Virus record (IMG/VR): IMGVR_UViG_2565956719_000002
Reading direction: 5' to 3' (one strand)
Source: a virus
Taxonomy: Duplodnaviria > Heunggongvirae > Uroviricota > Caudoviricetes
Length of the DNA stretch: 64,000 nt
The notes under the pieces were generated by a model. That model saw nothing but the letters and a program-made list of their open reading frames with translations, did no database searches and was not told the origin of the DNA. Both the position numbers and the translations under genes were made by a program. Positions 25 through 54,167 of the stretch are shown here, piece after piece. How positions within the stretch are numbered: position 1 is the first letter of the stretch; the number at the start of each line of letters is the position of its first letter.

Positions 25-234
25 ATGGCTTTCATTCCACCAACCATCGACGACGTTAGACATTGCTCTAACGCTTTATCTGTAGACCCCGCCGAAACCG
101 ACGCTGCCCGCGCCATTGCTGAACACTACTCAAAGATATCCAATCAGGAGTACCGCATCACCCAAGACGACCTGGATGATCTCACTGACACAATCGAATA
201 TCTCATGGCCACTAACCAACCAGACTCACAATAA
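25..234 (+). CDS. coi: Coi-like C1-inactivator (69 aa)
   Basis: 69-aa ORF immediately upstream of a 283-aa c1-like ORF on the same strand; size and position match P1 coi as I recall; no homology search possible. Confidence 0.4.
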   Translation: MAFIPPTIDDVRHCSNALSVDPAETDAARAIAEHYSKISNQEYRITQDDLDDLTDTIEYLMATNQPDSQ

Positions 235-344: not shown

Positions 345-1196
345 ATGATAAATTATGTCTACGGCGAACAACTGTACCAGGAGTTCGTCAGCTTCAGGGA
401 TCTCTTTCTAAAAAAAGCTGTTGCACGCGCCCAACACGTTGATACAGCCAGCGACGGTCGTCCTGTACGCCCGGTTGTCGTTCTACCGTTCAAAGAAACT
501 GACAGCATTCAGGCTGAAATTGATAAATGGACTTTAATGGCGCGGGAACTGGAACAGTACCCAGACCTCAATATCCCAAAGACTATTTTATATCCAGTGC
601 CTAACATCCTTCGCGGTGTGCGTAAGGTTACAACTTATCAGACAGAAGCTGTGAACAGCGTCAACATGACCGCTGGCCGCATTATTCATCTGATTGATAA
701 GGACATTCGCATCCAAAAAAGCGCGGGGATCAATGAGCACAGTGCGAAATACATAGAGAACCTGGAAGCAACAAAAGAGCTAATGAAGCAGTACCCGGAG
801 GATGAAAAATTCCGTATGCGTGTACACGGCTTTAGCGAAACAATGTTGCGCGTCCATTACATTTCCAGTAGCCCTAACTACAATGATGGTAAATCAGTTA
901 GTTACCATGTGCCGCTGTGTGGTGTGTTTATCTGCGATGAAACTCTCCGTGATGGAATCATCATCAACGGTGAATTCGAGAAAGCAAAATTTAGCCTTTA
1001 TGACTCCATAGAACCGATCATCTGCGACCGCTGGCCGCAAGCAAAAATATATCGCCTGGCAGATATTGAAAATGTAAAAAAACAAATTGCCATCACTCGC
1101 GAAGAGAAAAAGGTTAAGTCAGCCGCATCAGTTACGCGCAGCCGTAAAACCAAGAAGGGGCAGCCAGTAAACGACAACCCCGAAAGCGCGCAATAA
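345..1196 (+). CDS. c1: C1-like master repressor of lysis (283 aa)
   Basis: 283-aa ORF (length of P1 C1 as I recall) with a GGAGG RBS, downstream of the 69-aa coi-like ORF and operator-like sites; no recognisable HTH; identity not verifiable without a search. Confidence 0.45.
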   Translation: MINYVYGEQLYQEFVSFRDLFLKKAVARAQHVDTASDGRPVRPVVVLPFKETDSIQAEIDKWTLMARELEQYPDLNIPKTILYPVPNILRGVRKVTTYQTEAVNSVNMTAGRIIHLIDKDIRIQKSAGINEHSAKYIENLEATKELMKQYPEDEKFRMRVHGFSETMLRVHYISSSPNYNDGKSVSYHVPLCGVFICDETLRDGIIINGEFEKAKFSLYDSIEPIICDRWPQAKIYRLADIENVKKQIAITREEKKVKSAASVTRSRKTKKGQPVNDNPESAQ

Positions 1197-1228: not shown

Positions 1229-2344
1229 TTATTCAGCCGCCACCGGTTTTAACAAGCCAGCATCGAGCAGTTTACGCGTCAACCACTGCTGGCCTTTACC
1301 CGTTAATTGAGGCGTCAACCGTATCTGGTAGCCATCTTCATCATCCAGCACCACTTCTTTCACCGTGAAATACCCCGCGTTGATGTACTGCTGGAACGGC
1401 ACATTTTTACGTCCACCGGACGCTATCAGGATGCCGTTCTCCCGTAACCAGGCAAACAGCGCATTTTGTTTAAGTCCAACGACCTTTGCAAAATTCCCAA
1501 TCAGGATCCCTTTAGCTACTGATACCCGGTCGGCAAAATCGACTTTAGGAGCGGCGGCCACCAGCTGCTGATTTAGCTGGTGGGCTTTCTGTTCCAGAAG
1601 CTGCTTTTGTTCAGCCAGTTCGGCAGCCAGGCGCAGAGCTTCTGGAAGCGTCTGGGGGATTGCAACCGGTTGCTGTTCTTTTTGCCGGAAGTAGCTGTCT
1701 TCCAGTTTTTCAAAGAATGCCCATGCCTGATCGGTTTCGAGCATTTTAGCGTGGCGGGCTGCGCCGCGTTCCGTCCAGAGGATGAGTGAGCGGGCTTTAG
1801 GAGAGATAGGATTTTGTGAGTTACTTAAAGTCACCCGCAAATTGTTCAAATCATCTCCAATAACTTTATAGAAATGCTTACCTTCACAAAAACGTTCAGC
1901 ATTACGGGAAAAGTTCTTCTTGATGTTATCCGCATCTGTCCCATACCCCTTAGCAAGGATCTTAGTTGTCACTACACGCACTCCCTGCCACTCTAGAACG
2001 GGAATTTCATCCGGCTGACTTTGAACAACCACCAGTTCTGATTCCTGAACTAAAGGTGTATTAATTTTTTCAGATTTAACGTTAGTAGCTTTCATTCTGT
2101 GTGCCTCCTTGCGTGTTTCGGCTGCGACGGTTGCGTAATTCAGATGCCCCTGTTCGAGCAGGTATTCACGGATATCAGACAGCAGGATACGGTGAACAGC
2201 GTTCTTGTCCTTTCTCCGGTAAAGTTGTTTGGTGATCATGAAGTAGTTGGCAATAACGCCTGGTATATCCCTGGTACTGATACAGGCAGTGTGCTGTTCA
2301 ATTGCCTCGATCATCTCTTCACGGGTAACTAACGATGTTCTCAT
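1229..2344 (-). CDS. ant: antirepressor Ant (Bro-N-like central domain plus KilAC C-terminal domain)
   Basis: C-terminal KilAC-type region (AIPQTLPEALRLAAELAEQ ... GKGQQWLTRKLLDAG); central Bro-N/ORF6N-like segment; start overlaps the stop of the upstream 73-aa ORF. Confidence 0.8.
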   Translation of the reverse strand: MRTSLVTREEMIEAIEQHTACISTRDIPGVIANYFMITKQLYRRKDKNAVHRILLSDIREYLLEQGHLNYATVAAETRKEAHRMKATNVKSEKINTPLVQESELVVVQSQPDEIPVLEWQGVRVVTTKILAKGYGTDADNIKKNFSRNAERFCEGKHFYKVIGDDLNNLRVTLSNSQNPISPKARSLILWTERGAARHAKMLETDQAWAFFEKLEDSYFRQKEQQPVAIPQTLPEALRLAAELAEQKQLLEQKAHQLNQQLVAAAPKVDFADRVSVAKGILIGNFAKVVGLKQNALFAWLRENGILIASGGRKNVPFQQYINAGYFTVKEVVLDDEDGYQIRLTPQLTGKGQQWLTRKLLDAGLLKPVAAE

Positions 2345-2562
2345 AGTCCCTCCTGAGCAGAAGCGTTAACAGGGAGGCACCAGTAACTGAGAGAATTGCG
2401 TGAATCAGTGGAAAAACGGGCAGAGAAAATACATGGGGCGTCAGGAAGCTGAGAGCGGGCCTCATCTTCTGTCGGTGCAATAACGAAGTGATAGTGACGT
2501 TTTTGGCAGGAGTAAAAGCGCCAGATAAATACAGGATGAGTTGGGGTAGGGATAGTAGCCAT
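2341..2562 (-). CDS. icd: Icd-like small protein (73 aa) translationally coupled to ant
   Basis: 73-aa ORF with TAAGGAGG RBS; paralogue at 52333-52554 shares ...HYHFVIA.TEDEARSQLPD.PCIF.ARFST.SRN.LSYW...; position matches P1 icd upstream of ant. Confidence 0.45.
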   Translation of the reverse strand: MATIPTPTHPVFIWRFYSCQKRHYHFVIAPTEDEARSQLPDAPCIFSARFSTDSRNSLSYWCLPVNASAQEGL

Positions 2563-2639
2563 ATTGGCAGCCTCCTTAGACGTTGGTATGTAACCACCGC
2601 AGAAGAGACCAATCTTGCTGGCGGTGGACTGTACGGAGT

Positions 2640-2720
2640 TGGCCTTACTGGCGTCCAAGGTAACCAGCCTACCCGAAGGTAGCCCCATACAGCCCACCAT
2701 TGTAGAGGTGTGCGTGTACG
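2640..2720 (-). ncRNA. c4: candidate c4-like antisense/structured RNA (approximate bounds)
   Basis: UUCG-tetraloop hairpin (2669-2683) flanked by a block conserved with 52640-52690; stem sequences differ but stay complementary between the two copies. Confidence 0.3.
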
Positions 2721-2881
2721 CCGATACAAAAAAAAGACGCGAGCGGCGTCTGTATCGCCTTAGACTTAAGCGGGAGGCCAATCCCGGCACCCGTTTTAAT
2801 GAGGTGCCTGATAAGCATAAACCGAAAATGCCTCAAGGCGCAAGAGGTCAGGTTCAATGTAACATCGGCAGTCAAAAAACA

Positions 2882-2898
2882 CAATTTATTAGAGCAAG
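2882..2898 (-). promoter_or_regulatory. C1 operator-like site (CTTGCTCTAATAAATTG, 15/17)
   Basis: motif match immediately upstream (minus sense) of the c4/icd/ant module. Confidence 0.5.
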
Positions 2899-2901
2899 AT
2901 T

Positions 2902-4386
2902 TTACTCATTAAGCCATGCCAGAGCTTCATCAACCTGCGCTTCGTCTTCGACGCTAAGCACTTCATCCTGGGGAACATAATCCGCCAGCATAGCGAAACA
3001 ATATGTATCCCAATGGTCTGGTGAATGCAGGTTGAGTTTTTTCTTCATATCCTCCTTACTCATCACCTTCCATTGACCTGCGGAGTTAATCCCTACAGGG
3101 ATTTTCGACGCTTCCTCAATAGTTTCATTACCCTTATCCAGTCTCATACGACCAGATTTTACGGCCTCTGCGGCTTGAACGTTGGCATAAGCACGTTTAT
3201 CAAAGTACAGGCTCTTATCTTCACGGCTATGCATCTTTTTACCCCAGCGTATACGCTGTACGGTAATACCATAATACTCGTACATCAGATCCGCCGTTGC
3301 TTTACCCAGGCCATCGCCGTCTATCGCTATGGTAATATTTGGGAATCGCTCAGGATTACATTCTGCGAAAATTTTGGCGGCAAGCTGCGTTTCTGTAACG
3401 TCTGTGTATTCCAGCATTCGATAGTTGATTACACGGCGTTTATTTCTCTGGCCGGACACCATCATGATATTGATAACGGACTTATCCCGTCCCGTACCAC
3501 CAGCAACGTCCACACATGCAAGCCAGCCCCATCCTTTGGCAATCTTGACTTTCCGCCGCGTCGCACGTTCAACCTCATCACGTCCAAGAAGGAAGCCATC
3601 CTGTGATTTAGGGAATAGTCCGCGTACCTTAATCATGTACATAGGGTTATCACGCCCGCCGTACTCCGCCAGCTTCATTTTGATAAATGCTGGCGTTACC
3701 AGCGGTGATTCCTCACTGTTAAGCGTGATCGCCGTATAAACGCCATCAGGGTTACCAGGACGCTTGGCCAGTTTATGGTGAGTATCGTAGAAATAGCCGC
3801 TTGGGCGTGTAGGCTGTGACAGTAATAAGATGCGGTTATCCTGTCCGGTAAGAGCACCGGTGATGATACCGAAAGCTCTATCACTGACACCGGAGGCTTC
3901 ATCGATAATATACAGAAGATGATCTGCGTGTTCACCGGCGAGAGCTTCTTCACTTCCCAGACGAAAGCCCTTCGGTACTACAGTCCATACACCTTTACCA
4001 GTAACCTCATAGAAAGCGGTTTCTGTCAGAACAAAATAATCAGCAAGCCATGGAAAACGGCTGGTGGCAGTAGCCCAGTTTATCTTGATGTACTTGAATA
4101 TACCGGTCATTACCTGCTGAATTTTGTTCGCAACGATAATGGCGCGGGCACCGGGATACATGATTATGAACAACATGATCATGATAGAAGTCATGTCTGA
4201 TTTCCCGGTACCGTGACCAGACGAAACAGATGTCTTGCTACCCTGTTCCTGCACAGACTCAATAATCAGATCCTGCTGCCAGGTAGGTGTTTTGCCGAAC
4301 AAAACATCAGCGGCAGCAATCCAGTCATAACGATATAGCGCCACCAGCTCGCGCCAACGTGGATCCGTTACGCAACTTCTGGCCAT
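2902..4386 (-). CDS. pacB: terminase large subunit PacB (494 aa)
   Basis: Walker A-like SSGHGTGKS, terminase ATPase plus nuclease architecture; coupled to the upstream small subunit; length matches P1 PacB. Confidence 0.85.
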
Positions 4387-5579
4387 TAATCATCATCCCC
4401 GTATAGCTTGCGGGTAACTTCTTCGTCTTCCTCCTCGTCTTCGTCCAGGTCTTGTTCCAGCCATGGGTCGTTTGATACACCTTCAGTATCAACATCTCCA
4501 TAACCGCCTGTATCAACGATATCGGCGATTTCTTCCCTACGCTGCTCAATCCACAATGCGGCATCGGCGCGGCGGTTGGCGGCCCGTTCTCGCGCAACTT
4601 TGTCCAGATCTTCAAGAGAAGGGCCACCGACGGCTGTTTGCCTTTCCTCATCATCGGTATTGGTCTTAGGAGCACGCAGATCGGCTTTGATTTGCTCCAG
4701 CATCAGGGGCGGTACTTTCCCTCCATGCGCCTCGATGAATTCAGCTGCCTCCAGCACTGACCAGTTGTTTTCACGCTTTCGTTCGTATGCCAGCTTAACA
4801 ATGCCAGCTTGCCCCATAGACAAAGCGTGCTTTTCCGCCTCCCGGCTTTCTTTTCGATAGTTATTCCGGATGCTGTAAATGGTGTTGATCAGGCTGCTTA
4901 TCTGCGCGGAACAGCTGTTTAGCATGCTCGCGATACGGTATTCAGGCGGAGTTCCTTCATCATCGTCTTTTTGTTGATCGCGCATTTCCTGAACCAAGCG
5001 AATACACGTATCCCTGGCGTTCTCCAGCATAAGGAGATGAGAGAGAGACTTTTCCAGAAGAGTGGTTTCCAGAACATCAGCCCCGGACCGACGCAACATA
5101 GCGCGCGCGGCCTTCCGCGCTTCAACGTTATCTATCAGGTAATCGCCAGCTTCGAATTCAAAGCGTTCACCATCATCATCCAGGGTGTCGCGTTCCAGGC
5201 GATCACGTAAGGTCCGGTGGGCGCGGGTGATCACGTCATGATCATCAGAACGATCATTTATGCGCTTATTCTGGCGCTTCGCGTTCTCGACTGCGGCACT
5301 GACAACAGCATTAACTCTTTGTTTTTCAGCCAGTTCAGCCACAATGTGATCACCTGCACGTTGATCATTAGCGTGATCAATGATCATGCTTTTTAGTGGT
5401 TTTCTGACAGGCTTATTTGGCTTACGGCTGTCCGCTGTTCCGGTGTCTTCTTTGAATGCACGGAGATAACGACGTGCGGTGTTTGGGTTGAGATTAAACT
5501 CGGCGGCATATTGTGCGATGGTGTAACCACCATCTCGCGCCAGGCGAGCAAAATTCTTCTTGTGATCGTCCCAGGTCAC
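4386..5579 (-). CDS. pacA: terminase small subunit PacA (397 aa) containing the pac site
   Basis: N-terminal HTH-like region, acidic C-terminus, position upstream of the large terminase; two clusters of TGATCA hexamers inside the gene. Confidence 0.8.
5200..5390. other. P1-type pac site: two clusters of four GATC-containing hexamers about 90 bp apart
   Basis: GATCAC/TGATCA/TGATCA/CGATCA at 5201-5256 and TGATCA x4 at 5347-5386 inside pacA. Confidence 0.6.
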
Positions 5580-48819: not shown

Positions 48820-48975
48820 TTACCTTTCAGATTCGTAGGCTGTGAAGACAGTGACCTCCGTCTGGCCGGTTCGGATTCGTACCTCGCAGAGGTCTTTCCT
48901 CGTTACCAGTGCCGTCACAATGACGGTTAAACAGATGACGATCAGAGCGATTAACATCGCTTTTTGCTGCTTCAT
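48820..48975 (-). CDS. hok: Hok/Gef-family type I toxin (51 aa)
   Basis: MKQQKAMLIALIVICLTVIVTALVTRKDLCEVRIRTGQTEVTVFTAYESER resembles Hok; AAGGAG RBS; not in the ORF track (below 60 aa). Confidence 0.8.
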   Translation of the reverse strand: MKQQKAMLIALIVICLTVIVTALVTRKDLCEVRIRTGQTEVTVFTAYESER

Positions 48976-49033
48976 AGCCTGCTTCTCCTTGACCTTTTGG
49001 TCGGTAAGAGGCTAATCTACGTATGCTAAGCAT
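48827..49033 (-). CDS. mok: Mok-like overlapping reading frame (68 aa)
   Basis: ORF starts upstream of hok and overlaps it in another frame, as in hok/mok/sok loci. Confidence 0.4.
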   Translation of the reverse strand: MLSIRRLASYRPKGQGEAGYEAAKSDVNRSDRHLFNRHCDGTGNEERPLRGTNPNRPDGGHCLHSLRI

Positions 49034-49060
49034 AGATATGGCCTCAGATTAATGTTAAGC
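48990..49060 (+). ncRNA. sok: predicted Sok-like antisense RNA (approximate)
   Basis: inferred from hok/mok architecture only; no sequence evidence inspected. Confidence 0.25.
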
Positions 49061-49156
49061 GTCTTGCAGGACGCGTAATGTTATCTGGGGCTTTCTTCTA
49101 TCTGCTTTTCGGGTAATGCCTGAAGCAGATAGCCTCAAGCACCCGCAACGATTGTA

Positions 49157-49452: not shown

Positions 49453-50298
49453 TCACCCTCTGAATCCTGCCGGTATACCCCATTGTTCGTTATCTTTATT
49501 TTTGGCTAAAACCGCATTAAGAGCTTCGTTTACCGTCATGCAATGCGGCAGATTATCGAAGTTTGATACCCCGCCAATATCAGGAGAACGCTTGTTCTTC
49601 AGGTAAGCATATTTCCGCGCTGCCGCCTCTACCTTCTGCTTGAACTCATGTTTTTGAGCGCGTTTTTTGGATAACCGCAGATTGTCAGCCTTTGCTTTTG
49701 CCTCAGCGATCCATGAAGTCAATTTTTTGAGTCTGGTCGTTCCGGCACCGCCGGAAACTGATCTTTTTGTTTTTTTAACTTGTGACTTCTTATTCTTTAT
49801 TGCCACGTCATCCTGACAGGGGGAGGGGGTATCATTTTGACATGGGGGTGTGGATAAAAAATTAAATAAAGCCAATGTCTTAGCGAGAACAGCTTTAACC
49901 TTGGTTGCCGCTGAAGAGATCTTTAATTTGCTTTCAATCAGCGCATTTTTGGCTTGTTGTGCGAAGGCCAAAAAGGATGGTGTAAACCGGTACAGGTTAG
50001 CGCGACGTTCACGGTGATCGCCGATAACAATCTCTACAGACAGAATTCCTTTGTTTACAGCTTCACGGAATGCACGAACGACGGTTGATTGGCTATAACC
50101 AGTTTCTGCCGCGATCAGGCGGTGAGGCTTGTGAATGAAGTATTCACTGGTTGTTGCCGCGAGATTTGCACATTGCGACAGGATATGCCCGGCGCTACGG
50201 GATAGACCGGAGTGTGTTACAAAGCAGGCCAATTCATAGCCAGAAAAAGTAAAATCGCTCATCGTTATACAGCTCAGGAAAGTGACTTTAGCCAGCAT
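49453..50298 (-). CDS. repL: lytic replication protein RepL (281 aa)
   Basis: length and position downstream of kilA match P1 RepL; HTH-like segment. Confidence 0.8.
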   Translation of the reverse strand: MLAKVTFLSCITMSDFTFSGYELACFVTHSGLSRSAGHILSQCANLAATTSEYFIHKPHRLIAAETGYSQSTVVRAFREAVNKGILSVEIVIGDHRERRANLYRFTPSFLAFAQQAKNALIESKLKISSAATKVKAVLAKTLALFNFLSTPPCQNDTPSPCQDDVAIKNKKSQVKKTKRSVSGGAGTTRLKKLTSWIAEAKAKADNLRLSKKRAQKHEFKQKVEAAARKYAYLKNKRSPDIGGVSNFDNLPHCMTVNEALNAVLAKNKDNEQWGIPAGFRG

Positions 50299-50327: not shown

Positions 50328-51128
50328 TTAGCGCTTAGCCGCGACAGGTACCAGCACACCAGCATCAAGCAATCGCTTCATCAGCCACTGCTGACCTTTG
50401 CCGGTTATACGAGTCGTGAAAGAAATCCTGCTTCCATTGCTTGTATCGATCACGGTTTCTTTGAGGGTGAAGTACCCACGGGATATGTATTCTTGTTTGG
50501 GGACGTTCCTGCGTTCACCGGTTGCGATCAGAATTCCGTTATCACGCAACCAGGTGAAGAGATAGTTTTGGCCCAGGCCGAGCACTTTGGCATAGTTGCC
50601 GATTAGAACCCCGCTGGCGGTAGCAACGCGTTCGGCGAATTCGACTTTAGGTGCATCCATAAGCATTTTTTGCTCCAGCCGTTGCTTTTGCTCTGCCAGG
50701 TCGGCAGCCAAACGGAGAGCTTCAGGGAGACTCTGCGGAATAGCAGGTTGTAATCTTCCGGCTCGATAGTCGATAAATGTCTGGTTTACCTTCAGCCGAA
50801 ACGCGGGAGAAATCCAGCCTGCGTACTCCACAGCGAGCAATTCATGGGCAAAAGTGCCGCCGCCACGGCCTTCGAACGAAACTATGCAATTCTGCATAGT
50901 TTCTTTTTCAAGCTCTTCGATGAGCTGTTTGGCTGACAGCGTTCTTAGCCATTGAGCTGGCGCTTTATGGGCACCGAGTCCGCTCGCTCTGTGTAGAGCA
51001 TTAAGGTTGTAACGGCCAGCGCGGTCGGTCGTAATTTCAACACCACAAATAACAGGCAGAGTGGTTGAAGGATCGACATTTTGATGAAGGTTTGATATAT
51101 TCATATCCGCATTGAATGTTTGTTGCAT
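50328..51128 (-). CDS. kilA: KilA (KilA-N plus KilAC domains, 266 aa)
   Basis: C-terminal region paralogous to the Ant KilAC domains; 266 aa as in P1 KilA. Confidence 0.8.
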   Translation of the reverse strand: MQQTFNADMNISNLHQNVDPSTTLPVICGVEITTDRAGRYNLNALHRASGLGAHKAPAQWLRTLSAKQLIEELEKETMQNCIVSFEGRGGGTFAHELLAVEYAGWISPAFRLKVNQTFIDYRAGRLQPAIPQSLPEALRLAADLAEQKQRLEQKMLMDAPKVEFAERVATASGVLIGNYAKVLGLGQNYLFTWLRDNGILIATGERRNVPKQEYISRGYFTLKETVIDTSNGSRISFTTRITGKGQQWLMKRLLDAGVLVPVAAKR

Positions 51129-51196
51129 TTTTTCTCCAAATTTGCATCAACCTTCAATCACCAGCTCGAAATGGTGATTCTTTGCACTTAGAAAAC

Positions 51197-51213
51197 GAAA
51201 TTTATTAGAGCAA
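51197..51213 (-). promoter_or_regulatory. C1 operator-like site (TTTGCTCTAATAAATTT, 16/17) upstream of kilA-repL
   Basis: motif match 70 bp upstream of kilA. Confidence 0.6.
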
Positions 51214-51292
51214 ATTTTTCTAACTCGATCCAGATCGGGTTGGTCGATCTGCTCAGAAACCTGCCAGTTTGCTGGCAGGTTTTTTTCTTTTG

Positions 51293-52336
51293 TTAACCTA
51301 TTGCTACTGGTTTTAACAAACCAGCATCAAGTAGCTTGCGAGTTAACCACTGCTGGCCTTTACCCGTTAATTGGGGCGTCAGCCGTATCTGGTAGCCATT
51401 TTCATCATCCAGTACCACTTCTTTCACCGTGAAATACCCGGCGTTGATGTACTGTTGGCGCGGTACGTTTTTGCGCGCACCAAAAGCCATGAGAATGCCG
51501 TTCTGGCGCAACCATGAGAAAAGGGCGTTTTGCTTAAGTCCAACGACCTTTGCAAAGTTCCCGATCAGGATTCCATTGGCCACTGATACCCGGTCGGCAA
51601 AATCGACTTTAGGGGCTGCGGCCACCAGCTGTTGTTCCAACTGCATTTTCTGTTCTGCTAACTCGGCAGCCAGGCGTAGGGCTTCTGGTAATGTCTGGGG
51701 GATCGATGGGGTAGGTGAGTTTGCCTGCTGCAATTCTTCCAGTTTGTCGATCAGCGAACGGCGGACGGCTTTTGATTCGCGTGCGGCGACTCGCAGGGCT
51801 TGTTTGTAGGTCATGGTTATGACAACCATAGGCGTACCGCCACCTGGCGGCACGGTTGCACTTTTTGTGTAACCGTCCTCACCTTCTAATTCGTCGAGTA
51901 TTTTTTCGATGAATTTGTTGTTCCGAACCTCTGGTTCCCCACATAACTTACGCGCTTCATTGACCATCTTTAACAGTGTCAGGCTGTCGATTGTGTCTCC
52001 GGTGTTGGGGATGATATTCACGGCTGGTGCTGGCGTAGCTGACGTAACAGGTGCTGTTTTTTCAACATTCAAATTATTACCGGTCATTCTATGTGCCTCC
52101 TTTCTCATTTCTGCTGCCACTGTTGCGTAACGTAGACGTCCTTGTTCAATCAAATAATCCCTGATCTCGGCTATCAGTAGCTTGTTGATCACAGCCTTAT
52201 CTGTTCGGGTATAAAAACGTCTGGTTATCATGAAATAGTTGGCAATTGCGCCGGGGATCTCCCGTGTCGGCATACAGGCAGTATGCAGGGCGATCGCTTC
52301 GGCTATGTCATTACGGGTGACGAGAGGTTTTTTCAT
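51293..52336 (-). CDS. ant: antirepressor Ant, second copy (347 aa)
   Basis: N- and C-terminal thirds about 80-90% identical to 1229-2344; different central domain. Confidence 0.8.
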   Translation of the reverse strand: MKKPLVTRNDIAEAIALHTACMPTREIPGAIANYFMITRRFYTRTDKAVINKLLIAEIRDYLIEQGRLRYATVAAEMRKEAHRMTGNNLNVEKTAPVTSATPAPAVNIIPNTGDTIDSLTLLKMVNEARKLCGEPEVRNNKFIEKILDELEGEDGYTKSATVPPGGGTPMVVITMTYKQALRVAARESKAVRRSLIDKLEELQQANSPTPSIPQTLPEALRLAAELAEQKMQLEQQLVAAAPKVDFADRVSVANGILIGNFAKVVGLKQNALFSWLRQNGILMAFGARKNVPRQQYINAGYFTVKEVVLDDENGYQIRLTPQLTGKGQQWLTRKLLDAGLLKPVAIG

Positions 52337-52554
52337 AAACCCCCCTGAACGTCGGCAGAGAAGGGGAGGCTCCAGTAACTAAGTGGATTGCGCGAGTTAG
52401 TTGAAAAACGGGCAGTAAAAATGCAGGGGCCGTCAGGCAATTGAGAGCGTGCTTCGTCTTCTGTTGCTGCGATAACGAAGTGATAGTGGTGTTTTTTACA
52501 GGAATAGAAACGCCAGATGAATTCTTGGCGTGCGCAAGGATTGGCATTAACCAT
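52333..52554 (-). CDS. icd: Icd-like small protein (73 aa), second copy
   Basis: paralogue of 2341-2562; coupled to ant. Confidence 0.45.
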   Translation of the reverse strand: MVNANPCARQEFIWRFYSCKKHHYHFVIAATEDEARSQLPDGPCIFTARFSTNSRNPLSYWSLPFSADVQGGL

Positions 52555-52624
52555 AGTTACGGCCTCACAATCAGGTTTAACAACCTGCTACCCGCTGTCA
52601 AACAGGTGGCAGGACGTGACAGGG

Positions 52625-52705
52625 TTGACAGACTGGCGATTGTGAAACCAGCAGGCCGAAGCCTCCCCATCACGCCCCACCATAATTTGGGCGTAACGCG
52701 GTTTA
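52625..52705 (-). ncRNA. c4: candidate c4-like structured RNA, second copy (approximate)
   Basis: UUCG hairpin (52653-52664) with conserved flanks matching the copy at 2640-2720. Confidence 0.3.
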
Positions 52706-52868
52706 ACGGACACAAAAATACCGCAATATCGGAAATCTGCGGTTGTCCGCACAATCATTCAGGCTGTCAAACCTGGTCGCAGAATTTGCTACGACGGCGG
52801 AACTATAAGCCTGAACGATTAAAAGGTCAATATGATGCGAAAAGATAGCATTCGTGACTTAAAAATAC

Positions 52869-52885
52869 AAATTTATTAGAGCATT
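52869..52885 (-). promoter_or_regulatory. C1 operator-like site (AATGCTCTAATAAATTT, 16/17)
   Basis: motif upstream of the second ImmI module. Confidence 0.55.
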
Positions 52886-52981
52886 GTTTGTTTAATAAAT
52901 GCACAATTGGATCTAATAACCTCTTTTTTTTAAAGGCGAAAATATGTACCCTAAATGAGTTATAAGGCAGGTGAGGTTATA

Positions 52982-53629
52982 ATGAGAAAACTATTACTAC
53001 CGTTATTATTTATGGCTGGGACTGTTAATGCAGCATCAAGCGTAAAGGAGATTTGTACCGATTATACGAAATACCTTGGGCACGTTTACGGCTTTGCTGT
53101 CAGTCAAGACGAATCCATGCGCAAGAAGTTACTGTCAGATATGAAACGCCTTAAACTTTCTGAAGCGATGGTGCAGCAAGAACTGTATAAAGTCGCAACC
53201 AACGAAAATGCTAAATATCAATATTCTCGCCTGTTAAATCCCGACGCAAACGAGATCAATCGAAGCTCTTTCGATTATATGGTAAAGGCATGCGAAACCG
53301 CTCCTGATTTTGCTATTCCTAGCTGGGGTGTGCTGGTGGCGAGCAATGCCGTTAATAAAGAAGACGTTGGAAGAAATGGCATTGACTCAATCAGAAATGC
53401 CCCTGGAATGCGCCATCAAAACGTGCAGGGTACGCTTGAAGAGCGGGCCAGGGGGCCGGGTACAAACTCCCCAATGGGAAACCTCTCACCAGAGGAATTG
53501 CAAGAGTATAACCAACGGATGGAGCAGTATGAGAAAGCGGCACGCGAACAAATGGAACAACAAAAGAACGGCTCACTTAATACCTTTCAGCAAGGTTTAA
53601 AAGCGCTTAATTTACCATATGAATGGTAA
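52982..53629 (+). CDS. secreted protein (signal peptide MRKLLLPLLFMAGTVNA)
   Basis: signal peptide; start moved to MRKLLL; shares VQGTLEERARG segment with the sit-like protein. Confidence 0.45.
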   Translation: MRKLLLPLLFMAGTVNAASSVKEICTDYTKYLGHVYGFAVSQDESMRKKLLSDMKRLKLSEAMVQQELYKVATNENAKYQYSRLLNPDANEINRSSFDYMVKACETAPDFAIPSWGVLVASNAVNKEDVGRNGIDSIRNAPGMRHQNVQGTLEERARGPGTNSPMGNLSPEELQEYNQRMEQYEKAAREQMEQQKNGSLNTFQQGLKALNLPYEW

Positions 53630-53690: not shown

Positions 53691-54167
53691 ATGCGCATCA
53701 AACGATTTTTTCTAATTCTTGCTTTGCTTACTCCATTTTCATCAATGGCAAATGTAAGCAAATGGTCAACCGGCGAGACTCATGGTGTTCGTTCTTATGC
53801 TGTTTCCAGCAAAGATAATTATACGCTTACATTTGAGTGCGATGTTGGATTTAATAATACGGATCCCAATCAAGTAGGAACACGACTACTCACTCTCATG
53901 AAAACAGAACCTGGCGGTGAGTCATTTGATGCTAAAAAAGAACAAATAACGCTGAAAGTTGGTGATGATGAATATCCTATAAGTTCTATCGGTTCCTCTG
54001 TGGGTGATAGTTACTGGTATGGTTTTTGGTCAGATACCCCTGATATGGAAGTAAAAACATTCGATGCATACGTAGACGGAAAAAAAATCGCAACATTTAC
54101 GCTACGTAAGGCCGCAGAGCTTTTCAACGCGGCACCTGAAGATGGCTGCCTGAAGCGCGCAAAATGA
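53691..54167 (+). CDS. secreted protein (158 aa)
   Basis: signal peptide MRIKRFFLILALLTPFSSMA; AGGAGA RBS. Confidence 0.45.
   Translation: MRIKRFFLILALLTPFSSMANVSKWSTGETHGVRSYAVSSKDNYTLTFECDVGFNNTDPNQVGTRLLTLMKTEPGGESFDAKKEQITLKVGDDEYPISSIGSSVGDSYWYGFWSDTPDMEVKTFDAYVDGKKIATFTLRKAAELFNAAPEDGCLKRAK

Follow-up and report, generated by a model that had tools for sequence, protein, structure and literature searches.

A probable second ImmI-type immunity circuit between pacB and c1 of a P1-like phage-plasmid

The 64,000-nucleotide stretch analysed here (IMG/VR record IMGVR_UViG_2565956719_000002; "the window" refers to this whole stretch) belongs to a P1-like phage-plasmid (Punavirus) and features two modules resembling ImmI, the c4-icd-ant operon of phage P1. 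In P1 and P7, the antirepressor Ant binds and inactivates the C1 repressor, while the antisense RNA C4 is cut from its precursor by RNase P. The heteroimmunity of these two laboratory phages, with one module each, is the textbook example of how an antisense RNA determines immunity specificity. In the window, one module (module B) occupies the canonical site upstream of kilA and repL and the other (module A) resides between pacB and c1. In our view, module A is likely to be a paralogue of the P1 c4-icd-ant operon that functions as an additional ImmI-type circuit, such that the element would hold two orthogonal locks. C4-A is predicted to recognise targets different from those of C4-B, and two independent immunity locks are therefore most likely. 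As judged from the sequence, the RNA circuit of module A very probably works as described below, and it is reasonably probable that Ant-A acts on C1.

Two ImmI-type modules at different sites

Module A covers positions 1197-2901 on the minus strand between c1 (345-1196, plus strand), which is preceded by coi (25-234, plus strand), and pacB (2902-4386, minus strand), next to which pacA is located (4386-5579, minus strand). Module B spans 51129-52954, likewise on the minus strand, upstream of kilA (50328-51128, minus strand) and repL (49453-50298, minus strand). Rfam searches and open reading frame (ORF) analysis revealed C4, icd and ant in both modules, just where a sequence-only reading of the window had placed two ImmI-like modules. 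Module B is the canonical ImmI, as it exhibits 95.5% identity to the P1 ImmI region over 1.8 kb and has the position upstream of kilA-repL that is typical for P1 and that module A does not share. In P1, only 24 nt separate the stop codons of pacB and c1. Module A thus constitutes a 1,705-bp insertion replacing this spacer, and its flanks are collinear with P1 on both sides. P1 and P7 contain a single matching place each, so that P1 has one ImmI. Chance matches can be excluded because both C4 genes were found with E values of at most 3e-11 and because the window contains 12 C1-operator-like sites where 0.25 are expected. The sites outside the two modules coincide with known operator positions of P1.

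The sequence-only reading had named two circumstances that would undo it, mis-assembly of two elements and a pseudogenised module. Mis-assembly is excluded because the same arrangement is found in independent complete records. The same insertion is present in RCS47, JL22, vB_EcoM-673R5 and pD72-mcr1, and its junctions recur in complete phage and plasmid sequences of independent origin, which stem from several countries and several hosts. Among complete records, plasmid pD72-mcr1 of E. coli D72 matches module A most closely (99.9% identity). Its canonical C4 differs from that of the window, which must therefore stem from a related element. The arrangement is common. When presence was defined as a match over 80% or more of the module, four phage records qualified (vB_EcoM-673R5, JL22 and two for RCS47), as did 281 of 778 matching PLSDB plasmids and 264 of 5,426 complete genomes of E. 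coli. Decay of a duplicated module into a pseudogenised remnant is excluded because the frames are intact, the ratios of nonsynonymous to synonymous substitution rates (dN/dS) amount to 0.04-0.29, and RNA and target sequences covary. The only support for artefact or decay came from a few truncated ant genes among the relatives (60, 80 and 254 codons) and from a tandem copy on one contig (see below). In view of the evidence against it, which includes the P1-collinear flanks, such an explanation has a practically negligible probability.

Architecture of module A

All elements described in this section are encoded on the minus strand unless stated otherwise. Module A starts with a C1-operator-like site at 2882-2898 (CTTGCTCTAATAAATTG; matching the P1 operator consensus at 15 of 17 positions) that immediately follows the pacB stop codon, has the same strand and aligned position as Op51 (Oc4) of module B and is conserved across related loci. 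Next comes a 78-nt IsrK-type leader RNA at 2730-2807, identified by the Rfam model isrK (RF01394) with 60.8 bits at a gathering score of 50 and matched with 20.5 bits by the c4-a1b1 model as well. The predicted fold of the leader comprises two hairpins, with a1 (TTGGCCT, 2775-2781) inside the loop of the second one. The leader also contains b1 (GTCTAAGG, 2758-2765), and a terminator scan pointed at a GC-rich hairpin followed by a run of eight U at 2728-2751, resembling an intrinsic terminator.

The gene for the antisense RNA C4-A is located at 2620-2698 (Rfam C4, RF01695, 75.9 bits for a match at 2617-2704, gathering score 45). Its folding energy of -41.8 kcal/mol corresponds to a z score of -4.06, its architecture is the same as that of C4-B, and the predicted fold resembles that of P1 C4 with a long closing stem, a small hairpin, a hairpin exposing the b' loop (CCTTGGAC, RNA CCUUGGAC, 2653-2660) and a single-stranded a' junction (AGGCCAA, 2639-2645). 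Pairing is kept in all stems across 19 relatives, and compensatory changes occur. Downstream of C4-A, the icd-ant mRNA would contain the two targets a2 (TTGGTCT, 2606-2612) and b2 (GTCTAAGG, 2574-2581), the latter overlapping the Shine-Dalgarno sequence AAGGAGG of icd-A. The icd-A gene (2341-2562, 73 aa; phrog_1426, E 1.5e-44) and the ant-A gene (1229-2344, 371 aa; phrog_63, E 3.7e-135; Pfam ANT, E 1.4e-31, and ORF6N, E 8.7e-19) overlap in an ATGA motif that combines stop and start codon, as do their counterparts in module B. In ant-A, codon 84 is an internal start of the Ant2 type (ATG at 2095) with its own Shine-Dalgarno sequence. Such nested in-frame Ant1/Ant2 starts are present in both modules, in each case with a Shine-Dalgarno sequence and an ATG at codon 84, which is the position of the Ant2 start in P1. 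Between the stop codons of ant-A (1229) and c1 (1196), a terminator-like scan detected a palindromic hairpin at 1200-1221 that is a candidate for a terminator acting in both directions.

A further ORF with a GTG start (2341-2790, minus strand, 149 aa) runs through the C4-A gene into icd, and its residues 20-88 match Pfam family Phage_ASH (PF10554). The matching stretch spans the leader terminator, the entire C4 gene and a2/b2. Small genes annotated as "ash family protein" overlie C4 genes in public records, and the Phage_ASH family may in part consist of translated RNA genes.

Architecture of module B

Module B is organised in the same manner, again on the minus strand. The C1 operator Oc4 (Op51) at 52869-52885 exhibits 16 of 17 matches and aligns with the annotated Oc4 of P1. 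The a1b1 leader (52714-52808; Rfam c4-a1b1, 56 bits) is also matched by the isrK model with 43 bits (E 4e-8), that is below the gathering score of 50, and contains a1 (TTGACAG, 52764-52770) and b1 (GATTGTGC, 52749-52756). C4-B is encoded at 52605-52681 (Rfam C4, 68.4 bits for a match at 52602-52687; z score of the fold -4.58). Its b' sequence (TCACAATC, RNA UCACAAUC, 52638-52645) has the form known from P7, and its a' sequence (CTGTCAA, RNA CUGUCAA, 52625-52631) that of P1. C4-B is therefore a P1/P7 hybrid, and it represents a third specificity beside those of P1 and P7; phage JL22 has the same combination. The targets a2 (52595-52601) and b2 (52565-52572, overlapping the icd-B Shine-Dalgarno sequence) are followed by icd-B (52333-52554, 73 aa) and ant-B (51293-52336, 347 aa), the product of which is identical to P1 Ant1 at 330 of 348 aligned positions and has its Ant2 start at an ATG at 52087.

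Specificity resides in the C4 loops

C4-A and C4-B are identical at 55 of 90 aligned bases, and their a' and b' sequences are entirely different. In both modules, the pairs a1/b1 upstream and a2/b2 downstream of C4 are complementary to the a'/b' sequences of the respective C4 RNA, with b2 placed over the icd ribosome-binding site. Calculated duplexes between loops and cognate targets range from -8.4 to -11.7 kcal/mol (-8.6 and -11.3 kcal/mol for C4-A with a2 and b2 in the icd-ant mRNA). Non-cognate duplexes amount to -4.4 to -8.8 kcal/mol, and the strongest of these rests on a 4-bp GGCC match only. C4-A and C4-B should thus not cross-react according to these calculations, with weak cross-talk being possible.

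Related loci provided an opportunity to follow the loops and their targets through evolution. We used four C4 sequences to build a covariance model, searched 79 IMG/VR loci encoding relatives of Icd-A with it and obtained 85 C4 genes with 15 loop combinations on three scaffolds. In all 15 combinations, b1 and b2 are complementary to b' while a1 and a2 are complementary to a'. Pairing was counted formally for 19 different module A-type leaders, which mostly come from the pacB-c1 site, with loci L033 and L042 situated at kilA-repL. Standard pairs were found in 100% of the 798 cells, and 16 pairs had changed on both sides, among them three of the eight b'-b2 pairs and four of the seven a'-a2 pairs. 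In controls in which one strand was slid by one to three columns, pairing dropped to 28-50%. This covariation means that a switch in specificity needs coordinated changes at three places, and such switches have happened repeatedly. The sequences point at the C4 RNA loops, and not at the central domains of the Ant proteins, as the seat of immunity specificity. The proposal of two immunity specificities in one element is therefore upheld as far as the C4 loops matching their own targets are concerned. It does not stand in the form in which the specificities were attributed to different Ant centres.

Exchangeable centres of the antirepressors

Icd-A and Icd-B share 50 of 73 residues (68%), in agreement with the earlier estimate of about 70%. 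For the two Ant proteins, near-identical N- and C-terminal thirds and unrelated central domains had been claimed. This description fits the C-terminal part (124 of 136 residues or 91% identical) and the centre (25% identity), and fails for the N-terminal 84 residues with 62% identity. An hhalign comparison of alignments for the two central domains yielded a probability of 3%. Both proteins match phrog_1726 centrally, and a remote relationship of the two centres is possible on account of this shared match. In Ant-A, residues 1-83 form the N-terminal part specific for Ant1, residues 116-201 an ORF6N domain (PF10543, 68 bits at a cut-off of 27.8) and residues 259-360 the C-terminal KilAC/ANT domain. 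The centre had been described as Bro-N-like; the Pfam search at E <= 0.01, which was also made with the centre by itself, reported ANT and ORF6N for Ant-A and no Bro-N match, and we thus assign it to ORF6N. Pfam ANT (PF03374, cut-off 25.3) is matched by Ant-A, Ant-B and KilA with 109.5, 106.4 and 112.2 bits, respectively.

A full-length Ant-A query returned relatives with at least 85% identity throughout. Compared with Ant-A of the window, the relatives from the pacB-c1 site are 94-100% (mostly at least 96%) identical in the N-terminal 84 residues and 98-100% identical in the C-terminal part. Their centres are 62-100% identical or are replaced by a P1-type centre (16% identity), and the variable block begins right at the Ant2 start codon. 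In L033, an ORF6N-type Ant is encoded at kilA-repL, the canonical site, and in L006 and L038 a P1-type centre is encountered between pacB and c1. As both types of centre occur at both sites, we regard the Ant centres as exchangeable cassettes that mark neither a particular site nor a function of their own. No Pfam family covers the P1-type centre (residues 28-122 of Ant2-B, encoded in the gene part 51293-52087), which is a mobile domain in its own right and also forms the N-terminus of prophage proteins of about 220 aa in Escherichia, Salmonella, Arsenophonus, Sodalis and Xenorhabdus, which have several different C-terminal parts.

Selection on ant-A was assessed with 45 distinct full-length ORF6N-type genes. 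The dN/dS values (N-terminal part 0.07, centre 0.29, C-terminal part 0.04) demonstrate that ant-A is under purifying selection. The centre stands out by a synonymous divergence (dS) of 0.58 compared with 0.13-0.16 for the flanking parts.

AlphaFold2 models were of mediocre quality, with a mean predicted local distance difference test score (pLDDT) of 58.7 for Ant-A (70-87 in the ORF6N part) and of 69.0 for Ant2-B, and Foldseek searches of the PDB with these models gave no match at E <= 0.001. Weaker matches of both models were to winged-helix regulators (PadR, MarR, RTP). In sequence searches against proteins of solved structure, there was no match for Ant-A, and Ant-B gave six weak and unrelated ones (E 0.08-0.9).

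It is conceivable that module A is gated by C4 while Ant-A has a target other than C1, such as the repressors of other prophages, leading to cross-induction as described for the Gifsy antirepressors, or a host or defence factor. The Ant-A centre has no sequence relation to that of P1 Ant and diverges far more deeply than its flanks, the modelled centres give weak matches to winged-helix DNA-binding proteins, and leader and C4 are about 79% identical to an isrK-C4 unit that precedes Rha-family/antirepressor genes in Stx2a lambdoid phages. Still, we regard this explanation as unlikely. Both centre types are found at both sites, the C-terminal part of Ant-A closely resembles that of the canonical Ant, the N- and C-terminal parts are conserved among the pacB-c1 relatives, module A has its own C1-operator-like site, and the dN/dS of 0.29 for the centre gives no sign of positive selection. 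The suggestion that one of the modules is re-used as an anti-defence or sensing device did not gain support either, and a dedicated anti-defence role for one module was rejected: module A shares the operator-like site, the operon logic and the C-terminal Ant domain with the canonical module.

Stacked modules in P1-like elements

ImmI-type modules are also present at additional sites, all of them with C1-operator-like sequences. The P1-like Escherichia albertii plasmid p06-3542 (NZ_CP034163.1, loci L088/L089; 95.7 kb) contains five C4 genes with five different loop combinations, located at the canonical site, between pacB and c1, near cre, near lysozyme/head-processing genes and beside a dnaB-like helicase gene. 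Several of these C4 genes lie close to TnpB genes. We counted C4 genes in 34 IMG/VR contigs with lengths of 80 kb or more and obtained lower bounds for the numbers per contig. The matches listed gave at least one C4 gene in 16 contigs, at least two in 14, at least three in three and at least five in one. Among these matches, a given (b', a') pair occurred at most once in any one element (18 contigs with at least two modules), and specificities also differ within the window, within six named elements and among the five modules of p06-3542. The canonical and the pacB-c1 types of C4 assort freely between elements. Under random draws, the absence of repeats in five elements with several modules on the P1 scaffold has a probability of about 0.04, and non-redundancy of specificities within an element is suggestive only.

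Two contigs merit separate mention. IMGVR_UViG_2703718869_000013 (97 kb; loci L007, L107, L142, L190 and L212) has at least five C4 genes, two of which have AUGUAC as b' and are distinguished by a' alone, which prompts the question of whether an altered a' would by itself confer orthogonality. IMGVR_UViG_2698536372_000019 (locus L012) contains two identical C4-A copies (2859-2949 and 4425-4515) at a distance of 1,566 bp, each followed by icd and an ant gene, and runs of N elsewhere on the contig. This pair reflects either duplication of the module in tandem or faulty assembly.

The stacking bears on an explanation in which module A is mainly a defensive RNA: C4-A would silence incoming P1-like phages of its type, with icd-A and ant-A as passengers of minor importance for the element's own life cycle. 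Judging from P1, C4 alone among the parts of the module would be expected to be made in a lysogen, and elements with several modules stack specificities without repeats among the matches listed. Against this explanation, icd-A and ant-A have remained intact in most relatives by far (370-372 codons in 49 of 58 ant genes), both genes are under purifying selection, and neither the ATGA coupling nor the internal Ant2 start has been lost. We therefore consider a mainly defensive role of this kind very unlikely.

Relation to IsrK and other known systems

With permissive thresholds, the isrK and the c4-a1b1 models match the same leader in both modules, from which we conclude that the two Rfam families describe one homologous element. 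At the gathering score, the leader of module A is a member of the IsrK family and that of module B is not. In Gifsy-1 of Salmonella, the short IsrK RNA pairs with a long transcript and thereby trans-activates translation of a downstream antirepressor (Hershko-Shalev et al. 2016, PMC4825925). The region complementary to IsrK is orf45, the nucleotide sequence of which is conserved while the protein sequence is not (PMC4825925), and we infer that this region is C4-like. A review from 2025 handles IsrK and c4 separately. The isrK-orf45-anrP locus of Gifsy-1 resembles module A in the production of a short terminated RNA and in a read-through transcript with a small ORF that is AUGA-coupled to the antirepressor. 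Unlike the Gifsy-1 locus, module A features a recognisable C4 RNA and a 73-aa icd product between leader and ant. In the isrK-C4 unit of Stx2a lambdoid phages, the similarity of about 79% mentioned above extends over leader, C4 and the a2/b2 stretch, and some records annotate both "C4 antisense RNA" and "isrK". Here, the downstream Rha-family/antirepressor genes lack the P1-type Ant termini, and the C1 operator context is missing.

The closest parallel is ImmI of P1 and P7, which shares with module A the C1 operator, the a1/b1 leader, a C4 RNA with b' loop and a' junction, a2/b2 over the icd ribosome-binding site, a 73-aa Icd, nested Ant1/Ant2 and a KilAC C-terminus. Module A differs by its location between pacB and c1, its isrK-type leader, the ORF6N centre of Ant and the co-resident canonical module.

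Proposed mode of action

We propose that transcription of module A starts just downstream of the putative C1 operator, which would make the module part of the C1 regulon. The transcript would comprise, in this order, the leader with a1/b1 and terminator, C4-A RNA, a2/b2, icd and ant. The b' and a' sequences of C4-A are predicted to pair with b2 at the icd ribosome-binding site and a2 of their own module and not with the targets of module B, and the reverse appears to hold for C4-B. Start site, order and complementarity can be read directly from the predicted features of the window. The further steps are modelled on the biology of P1/P7 ImmI and the study of Gifsy-1 IsrK. In a lysogen, C4-A would block translation of icd-A and, via the ATGA coupling, also that of ant-A, and it would likewise silence an incoming phage of the same specificity. 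When the element enters a cell with a P1-like resident that is devoid of C4-A or C4-B, Ant1/Ant2 would inactivate C1, rendering the element heteroimmune. The short terminated IsrK-like leader RNA may serve as a decoy for C4 and set the threshold. With two orthogonal locks, a lysogen would be immune to more rivals, and fewer residents would be able to silence the element. The Ant centre, as a cassette exchanged from the Ant2 start onwards, would have no role in immunity specificity.

Several observations weigh against a second functional circuit with independent specificity. A consensus scan for sigma-70 promoters gave no match in module A, and the promoter is placed through alignment with P51a/P51b of P1 only. 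Binding of C1 by Ant-A is predicted from the shared C-terminal domain and the shared operon logic only, and the N-terminal part of Ant-A diverges from that of Ant-B as detailed above. One non-cognate duplex involving a' of C4-A reaches -8.8 kcal/mol and two modules in a related element share their b', so that partial cross-talk may be possible. Finally, the pattern of specificities that are never repeated is drawn from few informative elements with module counts that are lower bounds. Taking all of this together, we still regard a second ImmI-type circuit as the likely nature of module A.

Neighbouring genes

At the place beside ImmI where P1 harbours simA-simB-simC, the window contains two other ORFs on the plus strand (52955-53629 and 53691-54167) for proteins of 224 and 158 aa with N-termini resembling signal peptides and without a solid Pfam match. 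They may represent a different superinfection-exclusion cassette. Just beyond repL, a hok/sok-type antitoxin RNA is encoded at 48970-49144 on the minus strand (Rfam sok, 114.9 bits), and hokD is annotated at the corresponding place in pD72-mcr1. Three tRNA genes on the minus strand (30275-30347, 32154-32226 and 32232-32304) are present as in P1-like phages.

Implications for P1-like phage-plasmids

Second modules have been touched upon in the literature in single sentences. An ant gene with two short orfs between pacB and c1 was noted for pTZ20_1P and RCS47 and icd-ant homologues elsewhere for pSvP1 (PMC6906374), and a second antisense-RNA/icd region was noted for a D6-like plasmid (PMC6799933). 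In a literature search that largely did not cover subscription journals, we found no analysis of the RNA, the targets, the specificity, the prevalence or the function of such a second module. The parts and the logic of module A are those of ImmI, while its site, its RNA scaffold and specificity, its Ant centre and the stacked arrangement appear to be undescribed.

We tentatively put forward, at slightly less than an even chance, that the orthogonal C4/Icd/Ant locks of natural P1-like phage-plasmids, one to five in number, form a "barcode" and occupy intergenic sites bearing C1 operators. These sites would be kilA-repL, pacB-c1, near cre/res-mod, near lyz/pro and near ban. The code would be a two-site (a' x b') code without redundancy in a given element, the stack of locks would decide on displacement, induction or exclusion, and the IsrK-homologous leader would act as the anti-C4 decoy. 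The link between IsrK and c4-a1b1 suggests a tested function, trans-activation of an antirepressor, for the a1/b1 sites of P1, which have long lacked an explanation.

Should stacks of two to five orthogonal modules be the rule in natural P1-like phage-plasmids, immunity groups would be combinatorial, and competition and co-residence of plasmids would become predictable from C4 loop sequences. The evolution of RNA specificities by coordinated changes at three sites would then be traceable in hundreds of genomes. P1-like plasmids often carry resistance genes, for example mcr-1 or genes for extended-spectrum beta-lactamases, and if the barcode exists, the stack would affect the spread of such cargo, as in the case of mcr-1 on pD72-mcr1.

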